A DNA stretch of 45,310 nucleotides from an uncultured Gammaproteobacteria bacterium (GCA_964608945.1 CAZSQB010000002.1:1262-46571); one strand, 5' to 3'; numbered from the stretch's first letter, positions 21,223 to 44,551 are shown. A program made the numbers and translations. Notes: generated by a model from the sequence alone, not told the origin.

Positions 21223-22430
21223 GCGGAATTTCTTGGCTCGGCGCGTCTCGTCTATTCATTCGACTGGGTTCACTAGTAAGACTCGCTATTATCGCGAGAA
21301 TTCTTACTCCATCCCAGCTTGGATTATTTGGTATAGCGTCACTTGTTCTTGTCTTTTCCGAAATCATCACTGAAACTGGGATTAATGTACTTTTGTTGCA
21401 GGAGAAACATTCAGTCGATCGTGTCGTAAATACTGCATGGATAATCTCCATTGTCAGAGGTTTCCTCATATCTGTTTTTATCTTTATCGCTGCACCTTTG
21501 ATCGCTGCTTTTTTCTCCGCACCTGATGCTGTCTTTCTCATTCAGTTGATAAGCCTTGTCCCGCTCATACGTGGGTTCATCAACCCTTCTATTATTCGTT
21601 TTCACAAAGAACTCCAATTTCGTTCAGAATTTTATTACCGATCTGCTATTTATACTGTCGATGCAGGTTTGGCAGTATTGTTTACATTTCTTCTTCAATC
21701 ACCAGTAGGGATAATTATTGGATTTATCGGCGGGGTAATACTTGAGGTAATTCTTTCTTTTTATATTGTGAAACCCCGGCCGAAATTTCATTTTCGTAAA
21801 GATATATTTCTCCAGATTTTAAAAAAAGGAAAGTGGGTGACGCTTGCTGGTATATTTAATTATTTATTTGAAAATGCAGACGATATCGTGGTTGGTAAAT
21901 TGCTTGGCATGACGGCTCTTGGACTGTACGACACTTCTTATAGAATTTCGATGCTCCCGACTACCGAGGGAAGCGACGTAATATCAAAAGTGACATTTCC
22001 GATATATGTAAAAATAGTTGATGAAAAAGAGAGATTGAGAAAAGGGTTTATCAAAATGGTGTGCTTAATCAGCGCACTATTACTACCCGCTGCATTCATA
22101 TTTTTCTTTTTTCCATCACAAATTATTTATTTTGTACTTGGTCCGAAGTGGATGAGTGCTGCTCCGGTATTACAAGCGCTTGGGGTGTACGGAGTAATAC
22201 GAGCTATTTCTAACACCGCTCAGCCTCTCTTTTATGCTCTTAAAAGACAGGATATTGTCTCAAAGGTTAGCATGTTTAGTTTTTTCGTTCTTATGGGAAC
22301 GATATTTTTTTTCATTGAAAGGTTTGGATTAGTCGGGGCGGGATACGCTGCACTCACCGCTACAATTGTTGTAGCGCCATATATAGTCTACAATGTCTAC
22401 TCTGTCTTGCAGAAACACTCCCTTTCATAG
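21198..22430 (+). CDS. Wzx-like oligosaccharide flippase (MOP superfamily, polysaccharide biosynthesis protein)
   Basis: 410 aa with about 12 TM segments. The N-terminus GISWLGASRLFIRLGSLVRLAIIARILTPSQLGLFG is typical of the Polysacc_synt family. Confidence 0.8.
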   Translation: MGYTKATLSGISWLGASRLFIRLGSLVRLAIIARILTPSQLGLFGIASLVLVFSEIITETGINVLLLQEKHSVDRVVNTAWIISIVRGFLISVFIFIAAPLIAAFFSAPDAVFLIQLISLVPLIRGFINPSIIRFHKELQFRSEFYYRSAIYTVDAGLAVLFTFLLQSPVGIIIGFIGGVILEVILSFYIVKPRPKFHFRKDIFLQILKKGKWVTLAGIFNYLFENADDIVVGKLLGMTALGLYDTSYRISMLPTTEGSDVISKVTFPIYVKIVDEKERLRKGFIKMVCLISALLLPAAFIFFFFPSQIIYFVLGPKWMSAAPVLQALGVYGVIRAISNTAQPLFYALKRQDIVSKVSMFSFFVLMGTIFFFIERFGLVGAGYAALTATIVVAPYIVYNVYSVLQKHSLS

Positions 22431-29532: not shown

Positions 29533-29535
29533 TAG

Positions 29536-30816
29536 CTATCTATATTTTTTCCCTTTTACAATTTTGGGGGTGGGGAGTGGAATAATGAAGTCTCCCTTAA
29601 AGCCTTTTTTTACAAGTTTTGGCATCAGCTCGTCTGCTATGTGCCATGAAAGCAGGAGCGCGTATTCTGGTTGATCTTTAAATAGTTTGTCCTCATCTAA
29701 AATGGGGATGAGCGTTCCTGGAATATAGTTGCCGATTTTGTGAGAGCCTTTGATCTCTACCACACATGAAATAATATCTTCATCTAACCCTAGGTAGTTA
29801 ATGAGCGTACTTGCACGAGACGGGGCAGAAATACCATAGATTTTTTGTCTCTTTTTAACAGAGTTAAATAGCAAATCGTATAACCGTATTTTTGAAAAGA
29901 CGACATCGTCTTTAAATTGTTTAAATCGTTTTTTATTTTTTACTTTGTCCTTTTCCATCTCCAGCATCTTTTTAACAGAGGGCAATACTTTATACTGTCC
30001 TTTTTTTGCAGCGTATACTCTGATTGATCCGCCATGTGGTTGTATTTGTTTGGCGTAGAAAACCTCAAAGCCGTGCATTTTGAGTAAATTGGCAAGGCTT
30101 GTCAGTGAGTAATATCGCAGATGTTCATGGTAGATAGCGTCATACTGTGTCGTTTGTAATAAGGAAAGGAGGTAATGGGATTCAGATATAAAAACGCCAT
30201 CTTTTACTAGAAGCTTTTTTATCAAATCTATTATTTCATGAACGTTTTCCATATGTGCAAACGCATTCGTAGAGGTTATGATTTTTGCTTTGCCGTATTT
30301 TTTAACAGCAGATTCGGCGGCCTGTTTTCCGAAATAAGAAAGTATTGTTGGGATACCGTTCTTAATTGCAATTTTACCAATATCCTCGGGAGTTATTCCC
30401 AGTACCTGATGATTTTTAAAATTGCCTAGTAGCGTTCCATCATTTGATCCAATATCGATGATAAGATCGTCTTTTTTTAATTTCAGCAGATGTGATGATT
30501 CCTGATAGAGGTCTGCAAAATTATCACGCAGTACCTTTGTTGTGCCGCTTGTATAGGGATATTCTGGGGGAAAGAGTATTTTCGGATCAACTATGAGACT
30601 GAGTTGTGCTAAATAACAACGTGAACAATACAATAGTTCCGCTGGATAACTCGGCTGTTCATGGGGAATACTCCCAATGGGGAGCAGTTTGTTAACCGGT
30701 GGGAGATAGCCAAGGAAGAGAATGCTTTCCAACTTTTCATTTCCACAACTTTGGCATGTGGTCACAACAATGCTTGTGCCGGTTCCGAATGCAAAAGGAA
30801 GCTTTTTTCTCTTCAT
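29536..30816 (-). CDS. NDP-hexose C-methyltransferase-like enzyme, paralog 2
   Basis: A Zn ribbon (CQSCGN...CSRCYLAQL), motif I (IIDIGSNDGTLL), AIYHEHLRYY and a C-terminal IYGISAPSRAST are present. Confidence 0.8.
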   Translation of the reverse strand: MKRKKLPFAFGTGTSIVVTTCQSCGNEKLESILFLGYLPPVNKLLPIGSIPHEQPSYPAELLYCSRCYLAQLSLIVDPKILFPPEYPYTSGTTKVLRDNFADLYQESSHLLKLKKDDLIIDIGSNDGTLLGNFKNHQVLGITPEDIGKIAIKNGIPTILSYFGKQAAESAVKKYGKAKIITSTNAFAHMENVHEIIDLIKKLLVKDGVFISESHYLLSLLQTTQYDAIYHEHLRYYSLTSLANLLKMHGFEVFYAKQIQPHGGSIRVYAAKKGQYKVLPSVKKMLEMEKDKVKNKKRFKQFKDDVVFSKIRLYDLLFNSVKKRQKIYGISAPSRASTLINYLGLDEDIISCVVEIKGSHKIGNYIPGTLIPILDEDKLFKDQPEYALLLSWHIADELMPKLVKKGFKGDFIIPLPTPKIVKGKKYR

Positions 30817-31763
30817 TGTTGGCTATTGTACCACATGTATGTTTCTCTTAGTCCCTCCTCAAGTGATACTTTTGGAGCGAATCCAAGACTCTTAATCTTT
30901 TTAATATCAGGACATCTACGATAAGTACTCCCTTGACGAAGTTTTTGAGGAGCAATGATAATCTTTTTGCTTACCACTCGCTCAATTGTTTGCATCAGCT
31001 TTTTTATCGAAACCTCTTCGGTTGTACCAATATTGTACGTTTCTAAATGTTTGCCATTTTCTAGAAGAAGGAGCAATCCATGGATAAAATCGTCCCTAAA
31101 GATAAACGCTCGAGTTTCATCACCAGATCCTTGAATCGGAAGGGTAAGTACTGATTTACTCCCTTGTTTTTTTATTTTCAACAGCAACTCTGGTATAACG
31201 TGTTCCTCTCCCATATCTGGTCCGTATACATTATGTGGGCGAAAAATAATCGATCTTTTGAAATATTTTCTCCCATAATGAATTGTCATTAGCTCGCTTA
31301 TGATTTTCCCTCCAGCGTATGAGTAGCGAGGATTGTATGGATCCGGTATCGTAAGCGGAACATTCTCAGGGGTTGGGATGAGGGGTGGCGTCTGGTACGC
31401 TTCAGAGCTAGATGCGAGAAACAGTTCGGGAACATTTTTTTCTCTCCCTGCATCCAATATATTTACTATCCCCTTCACGCCAATTTCCAACACAAGCTCA
31501 GGCTGTTCATAGAAATATTTCGTCCCGTTAATATATGCAAGGTGGATAATGCTGTCGACGCCATTACACGCTTTTTTTACCTGTTCAATATTCCGAATGT
31601 CTCCCTCAATTATTTCAGCATCGTTTTTGATTTCAGAAAGTCTTCGCTTTGCCCCTCGGAAATTATTGTCAAAGACGCGAACAAATTCCCCTTTGGAAAC
31701 AAGCGCTTTTGCAAGCGCACTCCCGATAAACCCTGTGCCACCAGTGATAAGATATCGTTTCAT
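30813..31763 (-). CDS. NAD-dependent epimerase/dehydratase (extended SDR)
   Basis: Motifs are ITGGTGFIGSALAKAL and a catalytic YxxxK in YSYAGGKIISE. The stop overlaps the start of the downstream C-methyltransferase (ATGA). Confidence 0.85.
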   Translation of the reverse strand: MKRYLITGGTGFIGSALAKALVSKGEFVRVFDNNFRGAKRRLSEIKNDAEIIEGDIRNIEQVKKACNGVDSIIHLAYINGTKYFYEQPELVLEIGVKGIVNILDAGREKNVPELFLASSSEAYQTPPLIPTPENVPLTIPDPYNPRYSYAGGKIISELMTIHYGRKYFKRSIIFRPHNVYGPDMGEEHVIPELLLKIKKQGSKSVLTLPIQGSGDETRAFIFRDDFIHGLLLLLENGKHLETYNIGTTEEVSIKKLMQTIERVVSKKIIIAPQKLRQGSTYRRCPDIKKIKSLGFAPKVSLEEGLRETYMWYNSQQ

Positions 31764-31814
31764 CTTTTTATGAAGGCGATGAGATTATATATAATTGCAA
31801 TGGATCAGTAAACA

Positions 31815-32591
31815 TCATTTGTGCCCAACAAGCATTTGTAATACACGATTAGGAAAGCGCAGGATGCGGTTTCGGAGCAATGCAAGAGAGAACCATTTTA
31901 AATAAGGAACAATAGATCTTGAGAGGTTAAAGTTTGTTTTACCATGTTGGCGATCACGCCAGATAGTGGGTATCTCGCAAATTTGATAACCAAGAAGGTG
32001 TGCTTTGGCCACTATCTCAAGCGTTACACTAAAGCTTACTGTGCTCGTCAGTTGCATACTATCAAGCACCTTTTTTCTGTAAAGCTTGTAGCTATTGGTC
32101 GGGTCGTACGTCGGTAGTCCTGTCAAGAGATGAAGAAGAAAGCCTGCGATACGCGGTATCCAGACTTTTGGGGATGGTCTCAGTTCCTGTCTGCCGTTTT
32201 TTGTATACCGTGACGGGCAGATAATGTCTGCCTTTTTTGCCAAAGACAAAAGCTTCGGTACCTGCGTCAAGTCATCGCAGAGGTCTGCCATGGTGACAAG
32301 GACGAGAGGCGCTTTCGCTAGCATAAAGCCGGTACGAAGAGCGCCCGATGGCCCGCTTTGGACAGTGTTTTTCCTGTAATGGAGATTTTTGTTCTGTCTC
32401 CCGAGTCGTCGAAGGACAGGAAGGGTAGAATCGCGTTCAGAGTCATACACGACGATTATTTCATGAGGAACGGGAATGTTTTTTCTTATAGCTTCAAGGG
32501 TCTTTTCGATGTTTGCCGCCTCATTATGAACTGGAATAATAACAGATAGGCCAGGATCACCGGTCGGTTTTATATTTCTTTTTTTTCTCAT
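31815..32591 (-). CDS. Polyprenyl-phosphate sugar synthase-like GT2 (Dpm1/ArnC-like)
   Basis: Motifs seen are LSVIIPVHNEAANI, IIVVYDSERDST, LVLVTMADLCDD and YKLYRKKVL. The start overlaps the upstream C-methyltransferase stop by 4 nt. Confidence 0.8.
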   Translation of the reverse strand: MRKKRNIKPTGDPGLSVIIPVHNEAANIEKTLEAIRKNIPVPHEIIVVYDSERDSTLPVLRRLGRQNKNLHYRKNTVQSGPSGALRTGFMLAKAPLVLVTMADLCDDLTQVPKLLSLAKKADIICPSRYTKNGRQELRPSPKVWIPRIAGFLLHLLTGLPTYDPTNSYKLYRKKVLDSMQLTSTVSFSVTLEIVAKAHLLGYQICEIPTIWRDRQHGKTNFNLSRSIVPYLKWFSLALLRNRILRFPNRVLQMLVGHK

Positions 32592-33835
32592 GGAACAATG
32601 CGCGGCACAGGCAGGGGAACGAGGAATTTGCCACCTTTTCTTATATATTCACTTTTCTCAAGGAAGAAATCCAGATAGTTCCAGCTAAGAAGCAGCGCAT
32701 ATTCAGGCATTAAAGCGATAAACTCCTCCTCGCTTATAATTGGAATGTGTGAGCCGGGAGTAAGCAGTCCTTGTTTTAGGGGATTGGTTTCAGCTATGTA
32801 TGGTATTACCTTTGGGGTGATGCCAAAATAGTTAAGAAGCGTGTTTCCTTTGGCTGGAGCACCGTATCCTCCTAATTGCGCTCCTTGTCTCTTTACTTTT
32901 TTGATAAGTCTCAGAACACTTGTTTTGACTTTTTTGACCTGGAGTGCGAATCTGTGGTACCGCTTCATATCTTTTACCCCCCAGGCAATTTCGTCTTTCA
33001 GCATTTTCTTAACCGAGCTTTTGACAAGTCGCGTACCCGGCTTTGCTACGAAGATACGCAGCGCCGGTCCTGATGCGCCGAATGGAATACGCTCTACGTC
33101 AAATATGCATAGATTGAAGCGGGCGAGAAACGGGACCATAGGAGTCAGGCTTAGATAGCAAAGGTGTTCGTGGTAGATGGTGTCAAAAATTGTTTGATCT
33201 ATCATATCGACTAAATATGGTGCCTCGATAACAAATATGCCCTGATCCTCAAGTAACAAAGGGAGTGCTGAAACGAACTCTAGTATGTCATCGACATGTG
33301 CAAACACATTTGTCGCTGTTACGACTGTTGCTCGACCATATTTTTTTGTAATCCGACGTGCGGATCTGGGATTAAAGAATGACTTGATTACTTCTAATCC
33401 AGATGCAACGGCTACTTCTGCAATTTTTGACGGCTCAACGCCAACGCGAATCAGCCCCTTCTTTGTATACCCGTTGAGTAGAATGCCATCGTTGCAACCA
33501 ATATCTACAACAACGTCGTCTTTTTTCAGTCTGAAGCGTACTGTTAGATACTCTGCGAGATTAGCATAATGTTTTTTCAAGGCTTTTGAGCTTGAAGAGA
33601 GATAGAGATAATCATCAAAAATTGCCTCAGCTGAGACAACGTCTATCAGCTGGACAAGATAACATGACTGGCAGAGATACACCTCAAGGGGGGACCGATG
33701 TTCTGTATTAATCTGGTCTTTATTTATAAAGCTGTTAGACGGCGGATGGTGACCTAAAGAGAGAAATTGTTTTAATTGGCTAGACCCGCAGTAACGACAC
33801 GTATTTCTTTTTTTGCTTATTACAGAGGTTCTCAT
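32588..33835 (-). CDS. NDP-hexose C-methyltransferase-like enzyme, paralog 3
   Basis: A Zn ribbon (CRYCGS...CQSCYLVQL), motif I (VVDIGCNDGILL), TIYHEHLCYL and a C-terminal LGGYGAPAKGNT are present. Confidence 0.8.
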   Translation of the reverse strand: MRTSVISKKRNTCRYCGSSQLKQFLSLGHHPPSNSFINKDQINTEHRSPLEVYLCQSCYLVQLIDVVSAEAIFDDYLYLSSSSKALKKHYANLAEYLTVRFRLKKDDVVVDIGCNDGILLNGYTKKGLIRVGVEPSKIAEVAVASGLEVIKSFFNPRSARRITKKYGRATVVTATNVFAHVDDILEFVSALPLLLEDQGIFVIEAPYLVDMIDQTIFDTIYHEHLCYLSLTPMVPFLARFNLCIFDVERIPFGASGPALRIFVAKPGTRLVKSSVKKMLKDEIAWGVKDMKRYHRFALQVKKVKTSVLRLIKKVKRQGAQLGGYGAPAKGNTLLNYFGITPKVIPYIAETNPLKQGLLTPGSHIPIISEEEFIALMPEYALLLSWNYLDFFLEKSEYIRKGGKFLVPLPVPRIVP

Positions 33836-33911
33836 TGGAGACTATTATATCAAGAAATCCTCCTATGTATTTATTGATCGGGAAAGTATAATATAATGCT
33901 TTCTTAGATAG

Positions 33912-34787
33912 ATGAAAAAGATATTGCTTTTTGGAGGGAGTGGCATGGTGGGTTCAAGAATTCTTGAGCTTCTTTCAAGTCGTTATACCATCATTGCTCC
34001 GAGACGTGATGAGGTGAATATTAGCGACAAAGCTCAGATAAAAGATACCATTCAGGCGATAAAACCGAACCATATTATCTATGCCGCAGCGGTTAGTAAT
34101 CCAGACGCTGCAGAAGAACAGAAAGAGTATGCGATGCATATTAATGCCATAGTACCAGGTTTCATAGCTAATCTGGCAGCAAAAGGGCGCTTTCCACTCC
34201 TCTATTTTTCAACGGACGCTGTTTTTCCAGGCTATCAGAAAGATAGGCCATATAAAGAAAATGACCGCGTGGATCCTGTAAATTATTACGGAATTACAAA
34301 GCAAAAAGGAGAAGAGAATGTTCTTAGTGCCTCTGGGGGAAACTGCGTACTACGGCTTATCACAGTGTACTCACATTACTACCCTAAAAAAAAAGATACA
34401 GTACGCTTGGCAGCCTCGGCATTTCAAAACGGCAAGCAATTTACAGGAATAGTTGATCAGTATTTTAATCCGACGTATGTTGACGATGCCGTTTTGGCTG
34501 TAGATCGAGTTATTGAGAAAAAGGTAAAAGGCGTGTTACATTTTGGAGCAGCAGAATTTGTTAGTAATTATGAATTCATAGAACATATTGCGCGAGTCGG
34601 TGGGTTCCACGGAATTGATATTAAGAAAATTACGGTAAAAGATTTCTGTAAAGGTAGAAAAGCAAAACTGGGAAAGTATGTTTGGCTTGATACTGCAAAA
34701 GCAAAAAATCTATTAGGAGAAGATGCGGTTTTACCAGTGGAGAAGAGTCTAAAGCGATTTTGGAAGCATTTTTCCTCAGAAACGTAG
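33912..34787 (+). CDS. RmlD-like NDP-4-keto-6-deoxyhexose reductase (dTDP-4-dehydrorhamnose reductase family)
   Basis: ILLFGGSGMVGSRI and a YxxxK motif (YGITKQKGE) are present, and the length and layout are typical of RmlD-family reductases. Confidence 0.7.
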   Translation: MKKILLFGGSGMVGSRILELLSSRYTIIAPRRDEVNISDKAQIKDTIQAIKPNHIIYAAAVSNPDAAEEQKEYAMHINAIVPGFIANLAAKGRFPLLYFSTDAVFPGYQKDRPYKENDRVDPVNYYGITKQKGEENVLSASGGNCVLRLITVYSHYYPKKKDTVRLAASAFQNGKQFTGIVDQYFNPTYVDDAVLAVDRVIEKKVKGVLHFGAAEFVSNYEFIEHIARVGGFHGIDIKKITVKDFCKGRKAKLGKYVWLDTAKAKNLLGEDAVLPVEKSLKRFWKHFSSET

Positions 34788-34838
34788 TGTATCTAAGTTG
34801 ATTTCCAAAATTGTATAGTCTAAGATATGCAGAATTAA

Positions 34839-36116
34839 ATGAAGAGCACATTTCGTAAAAAAAAGATTACTGTGATAGGAATAGGAAGAGTAGGCTTGCC
34901 GTTCGCGCTCGTTCTTTCACACGCTGGTTATACTGTGTATGGAATCGGAAGAGATGAGACAAAAATCGCCGAAATCAGCAAAGGAAAAATGCCCTTTCAA
35001 GAAGAGGGAGCAGAACCTCTTTTAAAAAAACTTGCTACGAAACGCTTCTTTCCCACTATAGATTATTCGGTAATAAAAAAAAGTGATTTTATCATTTTAA
35101 CTCTGGGTACGCCAATTGATGAAAACATGAATCCCGTTTATGACCAGATTGACGAGTCTTTGAAAAAGGCTCAAGAGTTTTTCAGACCAGGCCAGACACT
35201 GATACTGCGAAGCACCGTTTCCCCAAGGACAACGCAATACGTACAATCGGCTATTGACGAAATTCAGGGATTGCAAGTTGGAAAAAATTTCTTCCTAGCC
35301 TTTTGTCCCGAAAGGATTGCTGAAGGTAAGTCAATAGAAGAAATGAAAACAATTCCTCAGATAATAGGCGGTGTCGATAGAAAAAGCGTAAATAAAGCAG
35401 AGGAATTGTTTAAATCGCTTGGTATTACAACTCTTTTAACTGACGATGTCTCTGCCGAGCTTGCAAAGCTTTTTACAAATATGTATCGGTATATTAATTT
35501 TGCTATTGCAAATGAGTTCATGGTCCTCGCACAAAATTATCATCGTGATATTTATAGAATTGTTGAATTAGTGAACTATAACTATAAACGCGGAGGATTG
35601 GCAATTCCGGGTTTGACCGGCGGGCCGTGCCTCTTCAAAGATGGTTTTTTTCTTATCGCAGATTTACCCTTTCAGGATTTAATTTCAACAAGCTGGAAAA
35701 TTAATGAATCTATACCATTATTTCTTATAAAAATAATACGCGAAAGGATGAGATTGAAAGGTAAAAAAGCAGTCATTCTCGGACTTTCGTTTAAAGCTGG
35801 CATTGACGATATTCGCGAGGCACTAAGTTTTAAGGTGAGAAAGGCACTACTTCGTGAACGTGCAGAGGTTGTGTTGCATGATCCATACGTACGAGAGTAT
35901 GTGAATCAATCTGTTGAGAAGGACATATATAAAGCGCTTGAAGACGCCGACTTAATTTTTATTGCAACGAATCACAAATTGTATACATCACTCGATATGA
36001 AGAAAGTAAAAGAGAAAGTGAAGAAAAATTGTATGGTTTGTGATGTATGGAATGTCTGGGGAACCGGAAAGATTGTGTATAAGCTGAATTACCTTAATAA
36101 AGAAAACGGAGAGTGA
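34839..36116 (+). CDS. Nucleotide-sugar 6-dehydrogenase (UDP-glucose/GDP-mannose dehydrogenase family), copy 1
   Basis: An N-terminal Rossmann motif (ITVIGIGRVGLPFALVL), FCPERIAEG, the catalytic Cys motif GGPCLFKDG and a C-terminal ILGLSFKAGIDDIREA are present. Confidence 0.85.
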   Translation: MKSTFRKKKITVIGIGRVGLPFALVLSHAGYTVYGIGRDETKIAEISKGKMPFQEEGAEPLLKKLATKRFFPTIDYSVIKKSDFIILTLGTPIDENMNPVYDQIDESLKKAQEFFRPGQTLILRSTVSPRTTQYVQSAIDEIQGLQVGKNFFLAFCPERIAEGKSIEEMKTIPQIIGGVDRKSVNKAEELFKSLGITTLLTDDVSAELAKLFTNMYRYINFAIANEFMVLAQNYHRDIYRIVELVNYNYKRGGLAIPGLTGGPCLFKDGFFLIADLPFQDLISTSWKINESIPLFLIKIIRERMRLKGKKAVILGLSFKAGIDDIREALSFKVRKALLRERAEVVLHDPYVREYVNQSVEKDIYKALEDADLIFIATNHKLYTSLDMKKVKEKVKKNCMVCDVWNVWGTGKIVYKLNYLNKENGE

Positions 36117-36122
36117 GTTTGG

Positions 36123-36830
36123 TTATTTTAATCGTAAGCCGGTTTTAATGATTGTCCACAGAAACATAAACCCGTGTTTTAATGGTATAACATTAGAATT
36201 TCCTACGATCCGTTTTTTGAAATGAACGGGAACATCTAAAATCTTATATCCTTTTTGCGCCGCCTTTATTACCTCCTCTGCCTCATAACCATAGTGATCA
36301 ACCTGTATATTAATATCTTTTAATACGTTTGTTTTAAATGCTTTAAACCCTGCTAGCACATCGGTTATCCTCTGTCTGGCAAATAGCGATGTAGCAAGCG
36401 ACAGAAAGAAAATGCCGAATCGCCTAAACTTTGTTACAGCACCGTTATCCACCTTTGAACCGGGTCTGAAGCGTGAGCCAAGTGTTACATCAAAGCCGAT
36501 ACGCAGCGGCTCGATCAGTTTGGGAATGTCGGAAGGCAGAAATTGATAGTCAGCATCTATTTGCACTATGTAGTCACCTGTCGCGTATTTATTTGCCTTT
36601 CTCAACGCAGCCCCCTTGCCTAGCCATTTACCGGCATGAATCACTCTTGCACCTGCCCTTTTTGCTACCTCTGCTGTTTTATCGGTTGTTTTACTGTCCA
36701 AAACAACGAAAACTTCCATTTTATATTGTGTTACATTAAGACACCCTTCGATAGTTCTTCTAATTGTTTTTTCTTCATTCAATGCAGCAGTGAGGATGGT
36801 TACTTTAGGCTTTCTGGTTTTCAGCATCAT
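36123..36830 (-). CDS. ArnC/Dpm1-like GT2, module copy 1
   Basis: Motifs are VTILTAALNEEKTI, GKGAALRKANKYATGDYIVQIDAD, DIPKLIEPL and GYEAEEVIKAAQKGYK. The maximal ORF reaches 37010, but the paralog at 39850-40563 starts about 10 aa before the equivalent KV(S/T)(V/I) strand. ATG 36830 is therefore preferred. Confidence 0.7.
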   Translation of the reverse strand: MMLKTRKPKVTILTAALNEEKTIRRTIEGCLNVTQYKMEVFVVLDSKTTDKTAEVAKRAGARVIHAGKWLGKGAALRKANKYATGDYIVQIDADYQFLPSDIPKLIEPLRIGFDVTLGSRFRPGSKVDNGAVTKFRRFGIFFLSLATSLFARQRITDVLAGFKAFKTNVLKDINIQVDHYGYEAEEVIKAAQKGYKILDVPVHFKKRIVGNSNVIPLKHGFMFLWTIIKTGLRLK

Positions 36831-36870
36831 GTCAGTCTTGTATAATACAGCCATTATAACAAACGAAGTT

Positions 36871-38406
36871 ATGGCCCACAACAAAGAACGCCTTCTTCTT
36901 GTCGCACTTTTCCTCATTGGAATTGCAACACGATTTCCACTCATGGAAAAAATGCAATCGCACTGGGATGGCCCGGATTGGAGTATAGCGATTATACGAT
37001 ATTCATTCATCCAGCATACGCCCTCGCCCCCTGGTTATCCACTCTATATAGCGATTGGTAAATTTCTCTATCTTTTTACACATGATCCTCACAGGGCAAT
37101 TGTAGCGGTCAGCGTTCTATTTAGTGGAATTGGCGCAGTGCTCTTTTATGTCGTTGGCAAACAACTATTTAATAGAACTGTTGGTATTATTGCATCACTT
37201 ATTTTTCTTTCTGCGCCGACTACGTATTTCTTCGGCATAACTGCTAACCCTTATGGTGTACTACCCATAACAGCTGCAGTTCTCGCGTGCGTTGTTTATC
37301 TCATTCTCTTTAAAAAAAGGAACTACGGCTTTTTTCTGGGTATCGTGTTTTCTTTTGCTATTGGTTTCCGGCCACAGGATGCAATATTTTTACTTCCGCT
37401 GTTTGTAATCGGTTTTCTATCGTTAAAAACGAGGGAAAAGTATATTGCGTTGTTTAGTTTTATTCTCTCATTTCTCTTTTGGTTTCTTCCGACAGCATAT
37501 GCAGTTGGCGGAATAAATAATTATACACACTATGTGACGACATTTATGCGAAACGGCACAGCTCCCGATATATCGCTCTCTCGCATTTCATATATCTGGT
37601 TCATACTGCTGCGGGGGCTATACCTCACAATTGGGATAGCTGGTATTTTTTTATTATTTTATTTTAAAAGCTTCTATGATTTTGTTAGACATAGCAACCA
37701 TATATACAGGTCACAGAAGATTAAAAATTTTACTTTCTACGCATTATGGATAGGTCCAGCTCTTTTTTTTAACACGTTTGTCAGAAGCGATCACGCCGCT
37801 CACCAAATGACATACCTGTCAGGTCTTATTTTTTTAGTCTCTTTCGCTATTTGGAAAACAACAAAGAAAAATACAATTATTCTCAGCTTTGTGGTAGTTG
37901 TTGTAGCTCTATTTAATCTCCTTACTTTTTTCAGAGATCGGGATCCTGGGAATAAAAAGCGTTACATTGATCAGTCATATCACCATTCAGAGATTAGGAA
38001 AAACGATATACGCATGAAAGCAAAAATCAATTTTATTGAAAGAAATTATTTACCGAAAGACACTATTATCTTCACTACCCCAACTCTATGGCGACCATAT
38101 ATGTATTATTTTAAAGATTATAAAATATTTGAAATAGACGCATTGGGAACAAAGGATAAGAAATTTGTCGATATTCGGAGAGATGGTCAATATTGGAATA
38201 AAAAAGAATATAAAGAGAGCGTGCATTCAATTGTGGTACCTATGAATACTAAAAATATCATCGTACTAGATGATGATGAACCGTTTAAAATAGTTCATAC
38301 AAAATCAATGGAGTATAGATTAGAAGGGGGGAGTTTAGTATACGTTATTCCTGTTAAGGGAGGAGAGGTATTTTCTTACGACTTGCATTTCTTGAAAAAG
38401 AATTAA
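36871..38406 (+). CDS. Polytopic membrane glycosyltransferase-like protein, DUF2723/TMEM260-like GT-C
   Basis: HWDGPDWS...HTPSPPGYPLYIAIGK is the PPGYPL signature of DUF2723-type proteins. There are about 10 TM segments and a soluble C-terminal domain. ATG 36871 is preferred over 36790, because a TATAAT box lies at 36841-36846. Confidence 0.65.
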   Translation: MAHNKERLLLVALFLIGIATRFPLMEKMQSHWDGPDWSIAIIRYSFIQHTPSPPGYPLYIAIGKFLYLFTHDPHRAIVAVSVLFSGIGAVLFYVVGKQLFNRTVGIIASLIFLSAPTTYFFGITANPYGVLPITAAVLACVVYLILFKKRNYGFFLGIVFSFAIGFRPQDAIFLLPLFVIGFLSLKTREKYIALFSFILSFLFWFLPTAYAVGGINNYTHYVTTFMRNGTAPDISLSRISYIWFILLRGLYLTIGIAGIFLLFYFKSFYDFVRHSNHIYRSQKIKNFTFYALWIGPALFFNTFVRSDHAAHQMTYLSGLIFLVSFAIWKTTKKNTIILSFVVVVVALFNLLTFFRDRDPGNKKRYIDQSYHHSEIRKNDIRMKAKINFIERNYLPKDTIIFTTPTLWRPYMYYFKDYKIFEIDALGTKDKKFVDIRRDGQYWNKKEYKESVHSIVVPMNTKNIIVLDDDEPFKIVHTKSMEYRLEGGSLVYVIPVKGGEVFSYDLHFLKKN

Positions 38407-38529
38407 CTCGTATCAAATGGATTAGGTTTTGCAATAAAAGATAATGGAGAAAGACTGCTGAATCTGATAAAATGCTTTATTGCGTCAAGTCTAATGAAGT
38501 AGTGGATTTATAAATTTATCTTTCTGCAC

Positions 38530-39864
38530 TTGAAATCGGTCCTTCTGAAGCAATCTGACGCTTTAATAGATGTTATATCATTGACCACTGTGAACATCCA
38601 AAAAGAGCTGTTAACAAAAATAAAAACTAAAAAGGCAAATATAGCCGTTATTGGACTCGGATATGTTGGTCTCCCTCTTGCAGTTCTTCTTGCAAAACAG
38701 GGTTTCACGATAAAAGGATATATAAAAACTGCAGAAAAACTGCGGGGTCTACAAAGCGGTATAAGCGGCATATCAGGTTATAACGATGATCTAAAAAAAA
38801 CTTTACGTTCTGGAAGTTTCTCTGCACACAGTATCGCTGATAGTAATCTTGCAGACAATGATATTTATATCATTTGCGTTCCCACTCCACTTAACAAGAA
38901 AAAAAAGCCAGACTTGACAAGCGTACATCAGGTTGCGAAAAGACTTTTTGAAACTGATCTTAAAGGAAAGCTGATTATTAACGAATCGACTGTTGCGCCG
39001 TTTACAACGCGAAGGATTTTTGTCTCTTCTCGAATGAATTATTTCCTCGTTTGTTCTCCTGAAAGAATCGATCCGGGAACAAGATTTGAGACTTCTGAAA
39101 ATATTCCAAAGGTTATCGGAGGAATTGACTCTGAAAGTCTCGAGCTTGGGATTGCACTCTATAGCCAGATTATAAAAAAGAAGCTAGTCATTGTGAGAAA
39201 TATAGAGGTAGCAGAAATGTCTAAAATGCTTGAGAATACATACAGAGCAATTAACATCTCGTTGATAAACGAGTTTGCAAGGTTAGCAGACGCGATTCAT
39301 ATTGATATCATAGACGTCATTGCTGCTGCAAAAACAAAATGGAGCTTTCAAGCGCATTATCCAGGTATCGGAGTTGGAGGGCATTGTATTCCTGTTGATC
39401 CTCATTACGTTCTTGAGCTTGCTCAAAAAAAAAGAGTTAAGATGGATGTCATTACTGAAGCCTTATGGGAAAACGAAAAAATGCCCGAGTATATAGTAGA
39501 CAAAGTTGTTAGGCACTACAAAAAAGGAATGGATGTTTTAGTATACGGACTCACATACAAAAAAGATGTTCCAGATCTTCGCGAAAGTCCTGTTCTTGCA
39601 TTTTGTAAACTACTAAAAAGAAAAAGAATTGATTTCACGGTATACGATCCTTTGCTCCCTCTAAAAACCATTCGAAAATTAGGATTTTCTCCTGTCCATC
39701 TTAAAAAAACAGACATTTTCGTAGTTGGGACAGACCATAAACAGCTTACAAAAGATTATAAATTAGCTGTTGGAAGCAAAACTATCATTATTGACGGAAG
39801 AAATTTTTTTCTAAAGAAAGTCGGGAAAAAGGTAATCGGTGTCGGCAGATCACTTGCCGAATGA
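38530..39864 (+). CDS. Nucleotide-sugar dehydrogenase (UDP-N-acetyl-hexosamine dehydrogenase-like), copy 2
   Basis: Motifs are IAVIGLGYVGLPLAVLLAKQGF, CSPERIDPG, the catalytic Cys motif GGHCIPVDP and VYGLTYKKDVPDLRES. The maximal ORF starts at a TTG, so the true start is uncertain. Confidence 0.85.
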   Translation: MKSVLLKQSDALIDVISLTTVNIQKELLTKIKTKKANIAVIGLGYVGLPLAVLLAKQGFTIKGYIKTAEKLRGLQSGISGISGYNDDLKKTLRSGSFSAHSIADSNLADNDIYIICVPTPLNKKKKPDLTSVHQVAKRLFETDLKGKLIINESTVAPFTTRRIFVSSRMNYFLVCSPERIDPGTRFETSENIPKVIGGIDSESLELGIALYSQIIKKKLVIVRNIEVAEMSKMLENTYRAINISLINEFARLADAIHIDIIDVIAAAKTKWSFQAHYPGIGVGGHCIPVDPHYVLELAQKKRVKMDVITEALWENEKMPEYIVDKVVRHYKKGMDVLVYGLTYKKDVPDLRESPVLAFCKLLKRKRIDFTVYDPLLPLKTIRKLGFSPVHLKKTDIFVVGTDHKQLTKDYKLAVGSKTIIIDGRNFFLKKVGKKVIGVGRSLAE

Positions 39865-40563
39865 TGACTGTATAATTGTTTTGAATACCGATAAGCCGTG
39901 TTTGATCGTCTTGAGATTTGATTTTCCGGTTTGACGCCTTGTGCATGTCACCGTTACATTTTTTAGTTTATATTTTTTCTTTGCTGCCTTTATAACAAGT
40001 TCTGCTTCATATCCAAAATCATTAGTCTTAGGGTTTATGTCAAGAACGACCGTTCTTTTAAATGCTTTGAGCCCGGTCATTACGTCGACAACTTTTCTTC
40101 CAGAAGCGATCGATGCTGAGAAGGAAAGGAAAAAATTCCCATACATTTTGATGAATGATGTAAAGCCGGAATTCAGAATGGAAAACAAATCGTATCGCAC
40201 CCCAATTACCATATCATACCCATCCTTCAAGGGTTCGATCAATTTTGGAATTTCTGAGGCCCTCAGCTGTTTGTCAGCATCAATTTGTACGACGTAGTCA
40301 CCTGTAGCTTCATTGATTCCCGTCCGAAAGGCAGCTCCTTTCCCCTGGTTTTTTTTGTGAATAATTATTTTATGTGCACCGCCTTTTTTTGCTGTAATTG
40401 AAGTACCGTCTTTTGATCCATCGTCGACTACAATAATCTCAAGATTATAGACATTTGATAATGCTTGAACATCTTTAATAACAGAATAGATTGTTTTTGC
40501 CTCGTTGTACGCTGGAATGATTACTGATACTTTTTCCTTTTTCTGGATATCTCTTTTGGCCAT
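39850..40563 (-). CDS. ArnC/Dpm1-like GT2, module copy 2
   Basis: Motifs are VSVIIPAYNEAKTI, IIVVDDGSKDGT, GKGAAFRTGINEATGDYVVQIDAD, EIPKLIEPL and GYEAELVIKAAKKKYK. Its 3' end overlaps the dehydrogenase 3' end by 15 nt (convergent). Confidence 0.85.
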   Translation of the reverse strand: MAKRDIQKKEKVSVIIPAYNEAKTIYSVIKDVQALSNVYNLEIIVVDDGSKDGTSITAKKGGAHKIIIHKKNQGKGAAFRTGINEATGDYVVQIDADKQLRASEIPKLIEPLKDGYDMVIGVRYDLFSILNSGFTSFIKMYGNFFLSFSASIASGRKVVDVMTGLKAFKRTVVLDINPKTNDFGYEAELVIKAAKKKYKLKNVTVTCTRRQTGKSNLKTIKHGLSVFKTIIQSSFGK

Positions 40564-40596
40564 TTCTGTATAATATCAGAATACCTATAATTGTAA

Positions 40597-41079
40597 ATGT
40601 TTTTGATGAAGAAAAAGGGATTGTTTTATTATCTGCTGCTGATATTATTTTTAATATGGATTGGGGTCTCTCTTGCTCGCACATTTTATAATCTTTCAAA
40701 ACTCGGCACCGAGGAGCGGAAGTGGTATTTTTTGACGGATGAAGAAAAGCGGGAAATGCAGTTTGGAGATAAACACCGCTTTTTCCGCTTTGTACAGGCT
40801 CATACAAAAAAAGGATCAAACATTTTGTTTTATACGCGTGATGGTATGGCTTATTATTGGGGGAGGTATTACTTGTATCCGACGACAATCATTTGGGGGG
40901 AAAACCAATATACTATTTGGGGAAACAATATCAATAGGAACTACAACTATGTGATGATTTATCCTCTTAACCGCGGGAAACGGTTAAAAGATGTGTTTTT
41001 CTTTGAGAATATTTCGTATAAAAAACTTGTAGAGTATAAAACAGGAAGCAATGTGAAAGGAGTTATTTACAAAAAATGA
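40597..41079 (+). CDS. Single-pass membrane protein with an aromatic-rich extracytoplasmic domain (hypothetical)
   Basis: An N-terminal TM segment (LFYYLLLILFLIWIGVSLA) is followed by a 125-aa W/Y-rich domain. The stop overlaps the downstream start (ATGA). TATAAT lies at 40586-40591, 5 nt before the ATG. Confidence 0.5.
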   Translation: MFLMKKKGLFYYLLLILFLIWIGVSLARTFYNLSKLGTEERKWYFLTDEEKREMQFGDKHRFFRFVQAHTKKGSNILFYTRDGMAYYWGRYYLYPTTIIWGENQYTIWGNNINRNYNYVMIYPLNRGKRLKDVFFFENISYKKLVEYKTGSNVKGVIYKK

Positions 41080-42410
41080 GCTTCATTCTAATTTTCCTAA
41101 CAATCCTTGTTGTTATCTGGGCCGGGTTTTTGGTAATTGAGTTGTTCGGTTTGATGAAAGAATCGTCTCTTTTTGAAAAACTATCTTTCTCGTGGGGGCT
41201 GGGATTCGGGCTTATTGGTCTTCAACTATTTTTTTATGATCTTTTGAATATGGAGTGGAGTCGACTGAGTATTCTTTTACCATGGATAATTCTTTTTATT
41301 CCGTATATTCGAAAAAACAAACCGTATTTTCCCAAAATGATTCTTCGATTACAACCCAGAGAAAATTTTTTTGCCATACTTATTCTTCTGCTTGTTTTAT
41401 TTGTCGGATTTGAATCTATTCTACGTCCAGTTCAAGCATGGGATGCTTGGGATAATTGGCTGTTCAGGTCAAAAGTGTTTTATTACCACAACACTATTGA
41501 CCAGTATTATTTTCATTATGCCCAAGATGAATATCCTCTTATTATCCCTCTAGTTGGCACCTTTGGGTATATCATGATGGGTCAAATCAATGATAGGCTC
41601 ATCTTGCTCCTTTTTTTTATGTTTTACCTTTGTCTTGGAGGAATTTTTTTCGGAACCGTAAGAAGGCTTTCTAGCACACAAAACGCCCTTTTGTTTACGT
41701 TTCTCTTATTGTCTTTGCAAAATCTCATCCGCCACGGTGGCCGTTTTGAAGCAGGTCAAGCAGACCTCGCGCTTTCTTATTATATTTTCTCAGGAACAAT
41801 TCTTCTTGCATCCTTTATAAAAAAGAAAAGTAAAAAAACAGCAATCCTCTTAAGTGTATTTTTAGGAATTGCAGGACAGATAAAGTATGATGGGATGGCT
41901 TTTATAGTAATAGTTATGCTTGTATTTTTGTTATACGTCGTCAAATGGAAACAATATAGATATGCTTATTTACTATTACCATCTTTTTTGCTACTTATAC
42001 CGTGGAACTTATATAAATTGCTTAATCAGCTTCCAGAAAATTTTCTCTTTCGTTCAGGGATAAACATTCATATAGAGAGGTTTGTGATAGTAATACTTTC
42101 CATGTCAAAAGAATTCTTCAATATCAAAAACTGGAACTTGCTATGGATTGTTTTTTTTGTCAGTTTAATATTCTTCTGGAATAGAGGCAAAAAGGCTAAA
42201 CTTTTTTTAGTTGTTTTATCTCTACAATGGCTATCATACTTTCTTGTTTTTTTAATGACCCCCACCAATCCAGTAACTCATATTGCAAATATTATCGATA
42301 AACTCTATATACATCTTGCACCAATTGCTACTCTTATTATTGCTTTAGTCACTTCCGATATGATGCAGAGATCAAAAGTAAAAATAATTCGAAAATTACA
42401 TAATGATTGA
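41076..42410 (+). CDS. Polytopic membrane protein, putative GT-C-like glycosyltransferase lacking a large soluble domain
   Basis: 444 aa with about 11 hydrophobic segments. An acidic/aromatic loop motif reads RPVQAWDAWDNWLFRSKVFY. Confidence 0.55.
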   Translation: MSFILIFLTILVVIWAGFLVIELFGLMKESSLFEKLSFSWGLGFGLIGLQLFFYDLLNMEWSRLSILLPWIILFIPYIRKNKPYFPKMILRLQPRENFFAILILLLVLFVGFESILRPVQAWDAWDNWLFRSKVFYYHNTIDQYYFHYAQDEYPLIIPLVGTFGYIMMGQINDRLILLLFFMFYLCLGGIFFGTVRRLSSTQNALLFTFLLLSLQNLIRHGGRFEAGQADLALSYYIFSGTILLASFIKKKSKKTAILLSVFLGIAGQIKYDGMAFIVIVMLVFLLYVVKWKQYRYAYLLLPSFLLLIPWNLYKLLNQLPENFLFRSGINIHIERFVIVILSMSKEFFNIKNWNLLWIVFFVSLIFFWNRGKKAKLFLVVLSLQWLSYFLVFLMTPTNPVTHIANIIDKLYIHLAPIATLIIALVTSDMMQRSKVKIIRKLHND

Positions 42411-42672
42411 GTATCGGGGATTTGAAACGCTTGAGGTATTGGAAGGGGCTGATAGGTATAATGGTTGGATTGCTGAGAAAATATCGTATTTTAACTTCCT
42501 TGGGCTGTTGAGTTGGATGGTTCGTGATAAGTTTGAAAGAAAAAACTTTCATCTTAAACCATACCAAATAGCGGCGTTTGATATGGTTGTTCCAATATTA
42601 AAAAGAGTAGAGAAGTATATCAGAATACCACTTGGAATATCCCTTGTTGCCATTGCACGAAAGAAAGGGTAG
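42403..42672 (+). pseudogene. Core-deleted remnant of a class I SAM methyltransferase (intact 89-aa ORF)
   Basis: The N-terminal part (FETLEVLEGADRYNGWIAEKI) and the C-terminal part (LGLLSWMVRDKFERKNFHLKPYQIAAFDMVVPILKRVEKYIRIPLGISLVAIARK) match the flanks of methyltransferases common in such glycan loci. The GxGxG SAM-binding core between them is missing. Confidence 0.45.
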
Positions 42673-42673
42673 C

Positions 42674-44551
42674 ATGATTTTTTCAGACCCCATTTTTTCA
42701 TTTCTTCATAGGCTTTACGCTGTTTTTCAGGGAAGGATTTCTTACTTAAGTGAAGATTTTACCGGCATCTCCTTAAACATCAAAACAGTTGGTATTTTCA
42801 TTTTACAAGCACTGATTGGTTTTGCTTGCATCGCAATCATATTCTTAATAGGCAATAGAATTAGACAGAGATTTTTTCTTGAAGAAGGAGATAAGAATGT
42901 ATTTCTTTCTATTGCTTTCGGATATATTACTGTTGGAATAGGTATTGCATTGCTTGGAATATATTCATTGTTAACACCAATCTATCTTGTTCTTTATATA
43001 GTAGTTGTTTGTGTAATTGCGTTACACAAACTGAATATCAGTTCTACAAAAATATTTGTTGCAGACTTTTTTAGAAGTCTCCTACCGATTAAGAAAAACA
43101 AAGTCATTATCGCTTTCATATTGCTTTTTTTAATTGTTGGATTTCTACGGCTATTACTTCCAGAAACTGGAGTAGATGCGCTGTGGTATCACACTGATTA
43201 TCCAAAGCAATATTTACAAAGGGGAACAATGATGGTTCCAGTAAAGGGGAATTTATATCTTGCTGCAACACCACAACTTGGTCAGATGCCGTACGTTATA
43301 TTTACCTTTCTTGGATTAGTCGACGCTGCACGAATTTTTCATTTCTTATTTTTGATTTTAGTTCTAGTATTGTTATACCACATCTCTAAAGATCTAACTT
43401 CCCCAAACGCTGGCTTAGCGACTGCACTACTTTTCATTACCTCGCCAATTATTTTACGTCATGCTCCAACAGCATATGTTGATTTTCAGTGGTTGTTTTT
43501 TTGGTTGCTTTCGCTTTGGATTCTATTAAAAGCGAAGATCTTACGTCTGAAAATAATAATACTAACTGGTGTATTGTTTGGTGGGTTATTATCGATGAAA
43601 CTTCTGGCTATTGTCTTCTTTCCTGTTTTCCTCATCTATATTCTATTAAAAAGTAAAGATGGATCATTTTCTGCCTTGAAAAACTTGTTGTTGTTTCTGT
43701 TTACGGCGGGAGCCGTTGTTTCCATTTGGTATATAAGAGCGTTTGTTATGACCGGTAATCCTTTTTACCCGCAATTTGCTTCTATGCAAAATGAATTCAG
43801 TAGCGTTTTAGCTTTAAATGACTTTCTATCATTAGCTTATTGGCAATACAAGGTACAGGGTGTTTTTAATATCTTAGATTTTAGTTTTTTATCCGCAGTT
43901 GCATTAGCTGGATTATTTTTTCTTCAAAAAAATCAACTCATGGTGCTTATGCGAGCAAATTTATTCATATTTTTTTGTTTGGTTGCTTTATTATTTTTCT
44001 TTTTACCAACACCATTTTTTATTGGGAGACATTTAATCTATCTATATAGTTTAATTATCCTTTTATTTGCATTGCCATTGGCAAATATCTACGAAAGATT
44101 TCTTCTTGCGAGAAGAGGGATACAATTAGCACTTTTATTGTTATTTAGCTACTATTTTATTAGTACGCTCGCGTTACTCCCATACGGTTTTGGATGGGCT
44201 GAGACAAATAAGTACTTAACTCGTACACTTGAGAATGATAACTCAAGTTATTACGATTATGATCGAAAATTCTCAAAATATATTGGCAAAAATGAAACAG
44301 TGGCAACATATAAAGTACAAGGGCTCTACTATGCAAGTTTCGAACCTAAAGACGTTGCATTACTGCTAGAAGAAAAGGAAAACATTTATACACAACTTGA
44401 GAAGTATAATATTAGTAAGCTTCTTATAAAAGGTGGGGACACACAGTGGTTTTGTAGCAATACAAAGTATCAAGCATGTGATGTAAAAAACTTCGTCCTT
44501 CTAGCAAAGCACGAGCCGGCAAAGCTTTATTTATATATAATAAATGAATGA
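42674..44551 (+). CDS. Polytopic membrane glycosyltransferase, GT-C fold (ArnT/GT39-like)
   Basis: About 625 aa. A loop motif (PETGVDALWYHTDYPKQYLQRG) follows the early TM segments, with more than 12 hydrophobic segments and a soluble C-terminal domain. ATG 42674 is preferred over TTG 42632. Confidence 0.7.
   Translation: MIFSDPIFSFLHRLYAVFQGRISYLSEDFTGISLNIKTVGIFILQALIGFACIAIIFLIGNRIRQRFFLEEGDKNVFLSIAFGYITVGIGIALLGIYSLLTPIYLVLYIVVVCVIALHKLNISSTKIFVADFFRSLLPIKKNKVIIAFILLFLIVGFLRLLLPETGVDALWYHTDYPKQYLQRGTMMVPVKGNLYLAATPQLGQMPYVIFTFLGLVDAARIFHFLFLILVLVLLYHISKDLTSPNAGLATALLFITSPIILRHAPTAYVDFQWLFFWLLSLWILLKAKILRLKIIILTGVLFGGLLSMKLLAIVFFPVFLIYILLKSKDGSFSALKNLLLFLFTAGAVVSIWYIRAFVMTGNPFYPQFASMQNEFSSVLALNDFLSLAYWQYKVQGVFNILDFSFLSAVALAGLFFLQKNQLMVLMRANLFIFFCLVALLFFFLPTPFFIGRHLIYLYSLIILLFALPLANIYERFLLARRGIQLALLLLFSYYFISTLALLPYGFGWAETNKYLTRTLENDNSSYYDYDRKFSKYIGKNETVATYKVQGLYYASFEPKDVALLLEEKENIYTQLEKYNISKLLIKGGDTQWFCSNTKYQACDVKNFVLLAKHEPAKLYLYIINE

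Follow-up and report, generated by a model that had tools for sequence, protein, structure and literature searches.

Two neighbouring dehydrogenase/GT2/GT-C cassettes, probably for lipid-linked extracytoplasmic glycosylation, in a Levybacteria-like groundwater bacterium

A 45,310-nt stretch of groundwater-metagenome DNA (CAZSQB010000002.1; called the window below, with all coordinates counted from its first letter) was analysed by sequence, homology, synteny and predicted structure. Between positions 34839 and 42410 it carries two adjacent gene cassettes, each comprising a nucleotide diphosphate (NDP)-sugar 6-dehydrogenase, a small family 2 glycosyltransferase (GT2) and a membrane glycosyltransferase of the GT-C fold. 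The enzyme classes and the conserved linkage of these genes are established by homology and fold, and the analysis on balance favours two neighbouring, independently inherited cassettes for extracytoplasmic glycosylation via a lipid-linked monosaccharide, in a Levybacteria-like bacterium (Microgenomates, candidate phyla radiation (CPR)). Judged from their sequences, the two cassettes are old, separately inherited representatives of a known kind and not a fresh duplication.

Layout and enzyme classes of the two cassettes

In the first cassette the dehydrogenase DH1 (34839..36116, plus strand) converges on GT2-1 (36123..36830, minus strand, 235 aa), which diverges from GTC1 (36871..38406, plus strand), a PMT_2-type GT-C transferase. 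The second consists of DH2 (38530..39864, plus strand), GT2-2 (39850..40563, minus strand, 237 aa), SM160 (40597..41079, plus strand), a single-pass, N-in protein of 160 aa from an unannotated family, and GTC2_444 (41076..42410, plus strand), a membrane-only transferase of 444 aa from a divergent family with a predicted GT-C fold. These open reading frames (ORFs) had been described in a sequence-only reading of the window; all were present with the coordinates, strands, order and domains given there, and the motifs it quoted (GGPCLFKDG, GGHCIPVDP, ATGDY(I/V)VQIDAD, IPKLIEPL and GYEAE.VIKAA) were found in the translations. The 3' ends of DH1 and GT2-1 are separated by a 6-nt gap and those of DH2 and GT2-2 overlap by 15 nt, while the divergent gaps measure 40 nt (GT2-1/GTC1) and 33 nt (GT2-2/SM160), and SM160 shares 4 nt (ATGA) with GTC2_444. 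No terminator-like site was seen between the convergent 3' ends, and the two genes of each pair probably give rise to antisense transcripts that overlap. The promoter and terminator scan returned counts at shuffled expectation (28 vs 28.7 and 6 vs 6.1, respectively), and no weight was put on two promoter-like sites (10/12) found in the divergent gaps.

Both GT2s carry the PF00535 domain of Pfam, and the full-length best matches of both were polyprenyl- or dolichyl-phosphate sugar synthases (PfDPMS 5mlz, AglJ, dolichyl-P hexose transferase, PpgS and ArnC). GT2-1 matched AglJ, dolichyl-P hexose transferase and PfDPMS best, and GT2-2 matched PfDPMS first and then ArnC; the PfDPMS E-values were 6e-18 (GT2-1) and 6e-20 (GT2-2), with the DAD and VDD motifs aligned. 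The ArnC equivalog NF007986 was not reached (34.5 bits for GT2-1 and 73.3 bits for GT2-2, cut-off 529), the PpgS model, among the better NCBIfam matches, gave 62.6 and 86.4 bits, far below its cut-off of 370, and PgfS scored 46-61 bits against the two. From these matches, the GT2s probably load a sugar on polyprenyl phosphate. It is extremely improbable that they are instead soluble, GpgS-like enzymes with a small-molecule or protein acceptor, standing beside GT-C genes by accident. Such a function would agree with the lack of a transmembrane (TM) helix in GT2-1 and GT2-2 (no hydrophobic 19-mer above 1.1) and with the similarity of their N-terminal halves to glucosyl-3-phosphoglycerate synthases (E 1e-17 to 1e-19). 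However, the best matches over the full length are dolichyl- and polyprenyl-phosphate synthases, the class has known members without TM helices (PpgS and Ppm1/D2; PMC3485146), a GT-C or polytopic protein lies within two genes in 33 of the 46 subfamily genes surveyed below, and one fusion of a GT2 to an SM160-like protein exists. With regard to gene starts, the public gene call for GT2-1 begins 8 codons further upstream, at 36854 (243 aa), and its frame (36123-37010, minus strand) stays open for 60 codons upstream of the likely start, overlapping the start of GTC1. Since GT2-1 orthologues have 233-236 aa, the short form is the true one and a longest-ORF call would be wrong.

DH1 and DH2 passed the nucleotide-sugar dehydrogenase model TIGR03026 (321.4 and 351.4 bits, cut-off 189.8), and both contain all three Pfam UDP-glucose/GDP-mannose dehydrogenase domains (UDPG_MGDP_dh) and a catalytic Cys loop, which is of the GGPC type in DH1 (GGPCLFKDG) and of the WecC/Cap5O/TviB-like GGHC type in DH2 (GGHCIPVDP). 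The best matches of DH1 in the PDB were 4r16, a Pyrococcus dehydrogenase of uridine diphosphate (UDP)-N-acetylmannosamine (UDP-ManNAc), and Cap5O of S. aureus. In phmmer comparisons 4r16 scored 189 bits with DH1 and 195 bits with DH2, and Cap5O 186 and 182 bits. No UDP-glucose 6-dehydrogenase equivalog was reached (best AglM at 145.6 bits for DH1, cut-off 670; best TuaD at 136.2 bits for DH2, cut-off 700), nor was the UDP-ManNAc dehydrogenase equivalog NF040825 (224.5 and 239.5 bits, cut-off 750). By sequence, UDP-ManNAc dehydrogenase (WecC/Cap5O) is thus the nearest class for both enzymes, without a match at member level. The proposal that the cassettes use different dehydrogenase subtypes stands in so far as the lineages and catalytic-loop motifs are distinct; it does not extend to the class, which is nearest UDP-ManNAc dehydrogenase for both, far below the equivalog cut-offs. 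The TTG start of DH2 at 38530 yields a 36-aa extension ahead of the Rossmann motif, and the orthologue in the closest related locus has 414 aa, so the DH2 start codon is uncertain.

GTC1 matched PF13231 (PMT_2) with 36.4 bits (cut-off 26.1), and its TMEM260/DUF2723 match of 20.9 bits lies below the cut-off of 24.2; the earlier label "DUF2723-like GT-C" was therefore right about the GT-C class, and PMT_2 is the better family. GTC1 has a C-terminal extracytoplasmic domain of ~150 aa, and its orthologues were found in 23 loci. SM160 and GTC2_444 had no Pfam or NCBIfam match. For GTC2_444, 72 homologues were detected and 51 aligned; 11 of the 51 match PMT_2, GTC2_444 itself does not, and D123, D230 and K270 are invariant in the alignment. 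An AlphaFold model built from the family alignment was all-helical (pLDDT 91.5, pTM 0.92), and its top 23 PDB matches in Foldseek were all GT-C proteins (AglB, ArnT, STT3, AftA, EmbB, ALG12, Pmt4 and PimE), ArnT superposing best (TMq 0.51 over 371 columns). The Foldseek E-values were weak (>=0.017) despite probabilities up to 1.0, and the GTC2_444 profile found no match among PDB sequences, so that fold comparison alone worked. The model supports GTC2_444 as a GT-C-fold enzyme, which would carry three additional helices at its N-terminus, ahead of the canonical GT-C TM1, and lack a soluble domain; a strongly basic loop (residues 81-93) points to an outside N-terminus. GTC1 and GTC2_444 shared no BLASTP similarity, and hhalign aligned the AWDAWDNW loop of GTC2_444 (with D123) to the HWDGPDW first loop of GTC1 with a probability of only 26%, in the TM1/first-loop region. 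The assignment of the two membrane proteins to different GT-C families was borne out by this lack of pairwise similarity; their profiles matched only weakly, over the GT-C core.

SM160 has one N-terminal TM segment with a short basic N-terminus, so its domain of ~130 aa should be extracytoplasmic. Its family comprises 195 representative clusters, nearly all of 107-186 aa. Of 25 loci, 24 have an SM160 gene directly ahead of a GTC2_444 homologue, and in 19 the two genes share 4 nt; going by the public gene call, the 25th locus has it as well. Judged by this gene arrangement, SM160 is an obligate, translationally coupled partner of GTC2_444, and it is likely that the two form a complex, a two-subunit GT-C. 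A single sequence of 395 aa (P0347) fuses a small GT2 of the type at 31815-32591, which belongs to another subfamily than GT2-1 and GT2-2, to a full SM160-like TM segment and extracytoplasmic domain; this one sequence suggests that SM160 may also tether a TM-less GT2. SM160 was also considered as a detached C-terminal domain of GTC1, which it resembles by eye; BLASTP and hhalign (25 SM160 vs 23 GTC1 sequences) found nothing, and the idea was dropped. The single-sequence AlphaFold model of SM160 (pLDDT 55.6) was too poor for a fold search.

Conservation in related genomes and the question of duplication

A scan of species-representative genomes yielded 43 non-redundant loci (numbered with the prefix L), mostly in metagenome-assembled genomes (MAGs) of Levybacteria, Microgenomates and Parcubacteria, with 46 genes of the GT2 subfamily. 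A dehydrogenase gene lies immediately 3' of the GT2 gene and convergent with it, with 3' ends from -29 to +9 nt, in 12/46; a dehydrogenase is found within two genes in 17/46, a GT-C or polytopic protein in 33/46, and both in 14/46. Abutting or overlapping dehydrogenase and GT2 3' ends were seen in L001, L002, L004, L006, L011, L014, L018, L023 and L037 as well as in the window. Co-occurrence of the triad in related genomes, which the sequence-only reading had named as a check, was thus confirmed, the arrangement being conserved in Levybacteria/Microgenomates. Many third-party MAG records titled "uncultured Gammaproteobacteria bacterium" (L010-L012, L016-L019, L023 and others) carry the Microgenomates-type cluster with 53-83% identical proteins, and these titles look like placeholders or errors.

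The closest relative, L001 (GCA_964457405.1), keeps both triads although the flanking genes have saturated synonymous sites; it carries three more genes, two of them for methyltransferases (one separating GT2-1 from GTC1, the other following GTC2_444) and one for an epimerase that precedes DH2. Relatives may have either module by itself or the two together. L002/L003 lack DH2 and GT2-2: there the order RmlD-like, DH1, GT2-1, methyltransferase, GTC1 runs straight on into SM160-GTC2. In L006/L007/L037 an epimerase, DH2, GT2-2 and SM160-GTC2 stand alone beside IleRS-FtsW-L21-L27-ParB. L016/18/19 hold both GT2 types, GT2-2 with SM160-GTC2 and GT2-1 plus DH1 with GTC1, and in L008 the GT2 stands with SM160-GTC2 while a methyltransferase replaces the dehydrogenase. 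SM160 is preceded by a same-strand GTC1 in 13 loci and by a divergently oriented GT2 in 10, which makes one GT2 facing GTC1-SM160-GTC2_444 the commonest layout. The IleRS-FtsW-L21-(L27)-ParB-signal peptidase block of the window (3130-9553) is syntenic with L006 (11018-16714); module 2 lies directly beside IleRS in L006, and ~30 kb of glycan genes intervene in the window.

The two cassettes had been put forward as a tandem duplication of a three-part module, and this did not survive comparison, as no component has its nearest relative in the opposite cassette. That a dehydrogenase/GT2/GT-C unit was truly duplicated in tandem within this lineage and diverged afterwards is very unlikely and largely refuted. 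Such an event would account for the same gene order and strand in both copies, for the abutting convergent dehydrogenase/GT2 micro-architecture that they share, and for the membership of both GT2s in one subfamily at 43% identity (173 bits in phmmer). Yet DH1 and DH2 are only 28% identical (125 bits in phmmer), and since each scores higher against the archaeal 4r16 and the Staphylococcus Cap5O (182-195 bits) than against the other, they are not specific paralogues; the proposed paralogy of the dehydrogenases thus fails, because they are no closer to each other than to other members of the family. The GT2s fall into separate, well-supported clades, each with many orthologues, the GT-Cs come from different families, the modules are found singly in relatives, and GTC1 and SM160-GTC2 usually form one operon served by one GT2.

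The paralogy of the GT2s has to be read with more care. Their mutual score exceeds that of random GT2s, including the window's two other small GT2s (24-28% identity to GT2-1/GT2-2; 47 and 26 bits), so a relationship within one subfamily stands. It is not a recent one: >120 database homologues (51-83% identity) stand nearer to GT2-1 than GT2-2 does, and GT2-1 is about as close to an Altiarchaeota GT2 (164 bits; 69 bits to PfDPMS), while GT2-2 has ~26 database homologues at >=44% identity. In a neighbour-joining tree of the 46 subfamily members, GT2-1 falls in a clade of 22 (bootstrap 99) and GT2-2 in its own clade of 7 (bootstrap 100). By sequence, they are old paralogues of one subfamily and not recent local duplicates.

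The following history may be proposed. The widespread form would have a single GT2 opposite GTC1-SM160-GTC2_444. A further GT2 paralogue, together with an unrelated dehydrogenase, would in this lineage have come to sit between GTC1 and SM160, so that each GT-C obtained its own donor synthase, and the block would later have been reshuffled by recombination. The layout agrees with an old duplication of the GT2, subsequent subfunctionalisation and the recruitment of a second dehydrogenase unrelated to the first.

Proposed mechanism and competing readings

In the proposed pathway a cytoplasmic NDP-sugar 6-dehydrogenase would make a sugar-nucleotide acid, and the small, peripheral GT2 would, by homology, load polyprenyl phosphate with a single sugar taken from a nucleotide donor. 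The lipid-linked sugar would then be flipped by a putative flippase, a role for which no cassette gene is proposed, and a GT-C would place the sugar on a surface acceptor, this being GTC1 in cassette 1 and SM160 plus GTC2_444, as a two-subunit enzyme, in cassette 2. That the neighbouring GT-Cs use the lipid-linked sugar made by the GT2s can be held with reasonable confidence, whereas the proposal that the dehydrogenase product is the GT2 donor has a little short of an even chance. The analogy drawn earlier with the Ugd - ArnC - ArnT pathway is sustained in that the GT2s match lipid-phosphate sugar synthases and both membrane partners are GT-C, and the synteny kept in Levybacteria/Microgenomates genomes supports it too.

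Several facts weigh against this scheme of two lipid-linked glycosylation cassettes. Neither GtrA/GtcA nor an SMR or MATE flippase was found (Pfam, NCBIfam) among the ORFs of 33.9-44.6 kb or the small membrane ORFs tested elsewhere, and the sole flippase-like gene in the window encodes a Wzx-like Polysacc_synt_3 protein at 21198-22430. The cassette enzymes passed no equivalog model, and their sugars are thus not assignable from models. As the dehydrogenase and GT2 genes are convergent they are not co-transcribed, and this, together with the presence of a dehydrogenase within two genes in 17/46 only, makes the donor link between dehydrogenase and GT2 the weakest step. With respect to the history, a bootstrap of 27 for the relation of the GT2-1 and GT2-2 clades leaves the order of insertion and loss uncertain.

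These facts bear on a second reading, unlikely but to be taken seriously, in which the GT2/GT-C pairs do serve lipid-linked glycosylation while the dehydrogenases feed other pathways of the surrounding glycan genes, for example by supplying uronic acids to a repeat unit that depends on Wzx, or precursors that are later decarboxylated, and the GT2 donors are ordinary UDP-hexoses or UDP-N-acetylhexosamine (UDP-HexNAc). The convergent, not co-transcribed genes fit it, as do the 29/46 GT2-subfamily genes without a nearby dehydrogenase, the methyltransferase in its place in L008, the GT4 and GT2 enzymes and Wzx-like flippase nearby, and the epimerase/dehydratase gene ahead of the DH2 orthologues in L001 and L006. 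However, each dehydrogenase type tracks its own GT2 type with 58-85% identical orthologues and with 3' ends at -29 to +9 nt: DH1 orthologues (68-85% identity) adjoin GT2-1 orthologues, and DH2 orthologues (81% in L001, 58% in L006) adjoin GT2-2 orthologues. In L006/L007, moreover, module 2 is bordered by housekeeping genes and has no further glycan genes around it.

A more elaborate version of the favoured scheme of two lipid-linked glycosylation cassettes is only tentative and, taken as a whole, doubtful. It would involve a Microgenomates-specific, unannotated two-subunit GT-C, in which a membrane-only core is complemented by a coupled single-pass subunit that gives the extracytoplasmic domain and possibly tethers the TM-less GT2; the window would then have captured an ancestral one-donor/two-transferase cluster split into two donor-specific systems, delivering lipid-linked sugars of the uronic-acid type to the surface of an ultra-small cell.

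Genomic setting, known systems and significance

The window from ~13 kb onward is a glycan island of roughly 32 kb. Besides GTC1 and GTC2_444, the window encodes a third PMT_2 GT-C, GTC3_639 (42632..44551, plus strand; PF13231 36.1 bits, cut-off 26.1), and five further GT-C-like proteins, at 478-2088, 18440-20284 (minus strand), 23635-25137, 25118-27961 (YfhO-like, with a match to the YfhO C-terminus) and 27937-29532 (a 531-aa polytopic protein with 10 TM helices and no family match, counted on its polytopic character only), which makes eight in all. A very large polytopic protein (930-977 aa, 12-15 TM) near a GT2/GT-C cluster was seen at 25118-27961 of the window and in L008, L022, L025, L028, L029, L043 and L046. 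There are four small lipid-carrier-type GT2s, those at 17741-18457 and 31815-32591 (minus strand) in addition to GT2-1 and GT2-2, and the tailoring and export genes of the island include three C-methyltransferases, a 4,6-dehydratase-like epimerase, an RmlD-like reductase and the Wzx-like flippase. One further module consists of a C-methyltransferase (16485-17741), the GT2 at 17741-18457 and the convergent, overlapping GT-C at 18440-20284; another, at 27937-33835, has a C-methyltransferase, a GT2, the 4,6-dehydratase-like epimerase and a C-methyltransferase beside the polytopic protein at 27937-29532. Both carry NDP-hexose C-methyltransferases (PF08421/PF08484) where the triads have dehydrogenases. 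With the two triads, the window shows the combination of a sugar-nucleotide tailoring enzyme with a small GT2 and a GT-C at least four times, which makes the triads two instances of a general modular logic.

The RmlD-like NDP-4-keto-sugar reductase (33912..34787, plus strand; PF04321 182 bits; TIGR01214 rmlD 172.5 bits, below its cut-off of 224) lies 51 nt upstream of DH1 in the same direction. Its gene adjoins the DH1 orthologue in L001 and L002/L003 and is 1-2 genes away in L014 and L016/18/19; it may serve the adjacent C-methyl-sugar module instead of the DH1 cassette.

Synonymous-codon identity between the window and L001, computed among identical residues, was 41-47% in the segment at 29.5-33.8 kb, 63% for the RmlD-like gene, 53% for DH1, 73% for GT2-1, 55% for GTC1, 75-79% for DH2, GT2-2 and SM160, 94% for GTC2_444 and 95% for GTC3_639 (91% amino acid identity). 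These unequal identities along 29554-44334 indicate segments of different age and hence recombination or lateral exchange between related populations, with one breakpoint at the start of DH2 (38488/38527). GTC1 is 49% identical in amino acids and its flanking genes 83-84%, a contrast that suggests that alleles of this surface-glycan locus have been replaced by recombination. On these values, GTC3_639 shares the recent history of GTC2_444. Between them an 89-aa ORF (42403..42672, plus strand) matches, in tblastn, residues 1-27 and 146-233 of a 234-aa S-adenosylmethionine (SAM)-methyltransferase that is intact in L001; from this alignment it is a remnant left by an in-frame internal deletion, the lost residues 28-145 of which should include the SAM-binding core.

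Three-component extracytoplasmic glycosylation systems have been described (GtrB/GtrA/Gtr* and CsbB/GtcA/YfhO; PMC8035078, PMC11127046, PMC7389260; defined in PMC11127046). As in these systems, the gene for a GT2 of the polyprenyl-phosphate sugar synthase type stands beside a GT-C gene in swappable modules; unlike them, the cassettes contain no GtrA, SMR or MATE flippase gene, have an attached sugar-nucleotide dehydrogenase and, in one case, a GT-C split into a membrane core and a single-pass subunit. The GT2s also lack the C-terminal TM helices of GtrB/CsbB and resemble the TM-less PpgS/Ppm1-D2 type. In ArnC/GtrB-type synthases such helices anchor the catalytic domain. The Ugd - ArnC - ArnT pathway shares with the scheme proposed for the cassettes the dehydrogenase-derived sugar, its loading on undecaprenyl phosphate by a GT2 and the transfer by a GT-C, but the modules have no ArnA, ArnB, ArnD or ArnEF homologues and their dehydrogenases are nearer UDP-ManNAc dehydrogenases than Ugd. 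CPR bacteria are generally held to lack lipopolysaccharide (LPS), so a lipid A acceptor would be unexpected here.

By its description, the RgtE / RgtA-D,F system of rhizobial LPS is similar in that a uronic acid is put on bactoprenyl phosphate by a GT2 (rgtE encodes the bactoprenyl-phosphate galacturonic acid transferase; PMC7663294) and moved by ArnT-like GT-Cs. By analogy it would be the clearest precedent for a lipid-linked uronate donor, and it differs from the cassettes in acceptor and phylum. In mycobacteria, PpgS (Rv3631) is a TM-less GT2 polyprenyl-P-HexNAc synthase encoded beside the small membrane protein Rv3632, which has been proposed to tether it, and the GT-C Rv3779 uses the lipid donor (PMC3485146). 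The second cassette likewise combines a TM-less GT2, a small membrane protein and a GT-C; unlike Rv3632, SM160 is coupled translationally to the GT-C and not to the GT2, and PpgS has no dehydrogenase partner. The streptococcal Pgf locus (PgfS, PgfM1, PgfE, PgfM2) is described as having a GT2 synthase, a sugar-nucleotide tailoring enzyme and two GT-C membrane proteins (bioRxiv 10.1101/2022.10.10.511621) and so resembles the commonest layout of the relatives, one GT2 with GTC1 and SM160-GTC2; the tailoring enzyme there is an epimerase, where the cassettes have a dehydrogenase.

Searches for this cluster in CPR bacteria found no description in the literature library covered, and we know of no experimental characterisation of CPR surface glycans. 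CPR cells live attached to hosts. The locus suggests that surface glycosylation in this organism is modular, each cassette joining a tailoring enzyme to a small GT2 and a GT-C, and that these exchangeable units recombine between related populations, much as O-antigen loci do. A fold and a partner can be assigned to two widespread unannotated families (SM160 and the 444-aa GT-C), to the benefit of the annotation of many such genomes. The cassette would also offer a compact system in which to ask whether uronic or N-acetyl-uronic sugars ride on polyprenyl phosphate outside the rhizobial RgtE system.

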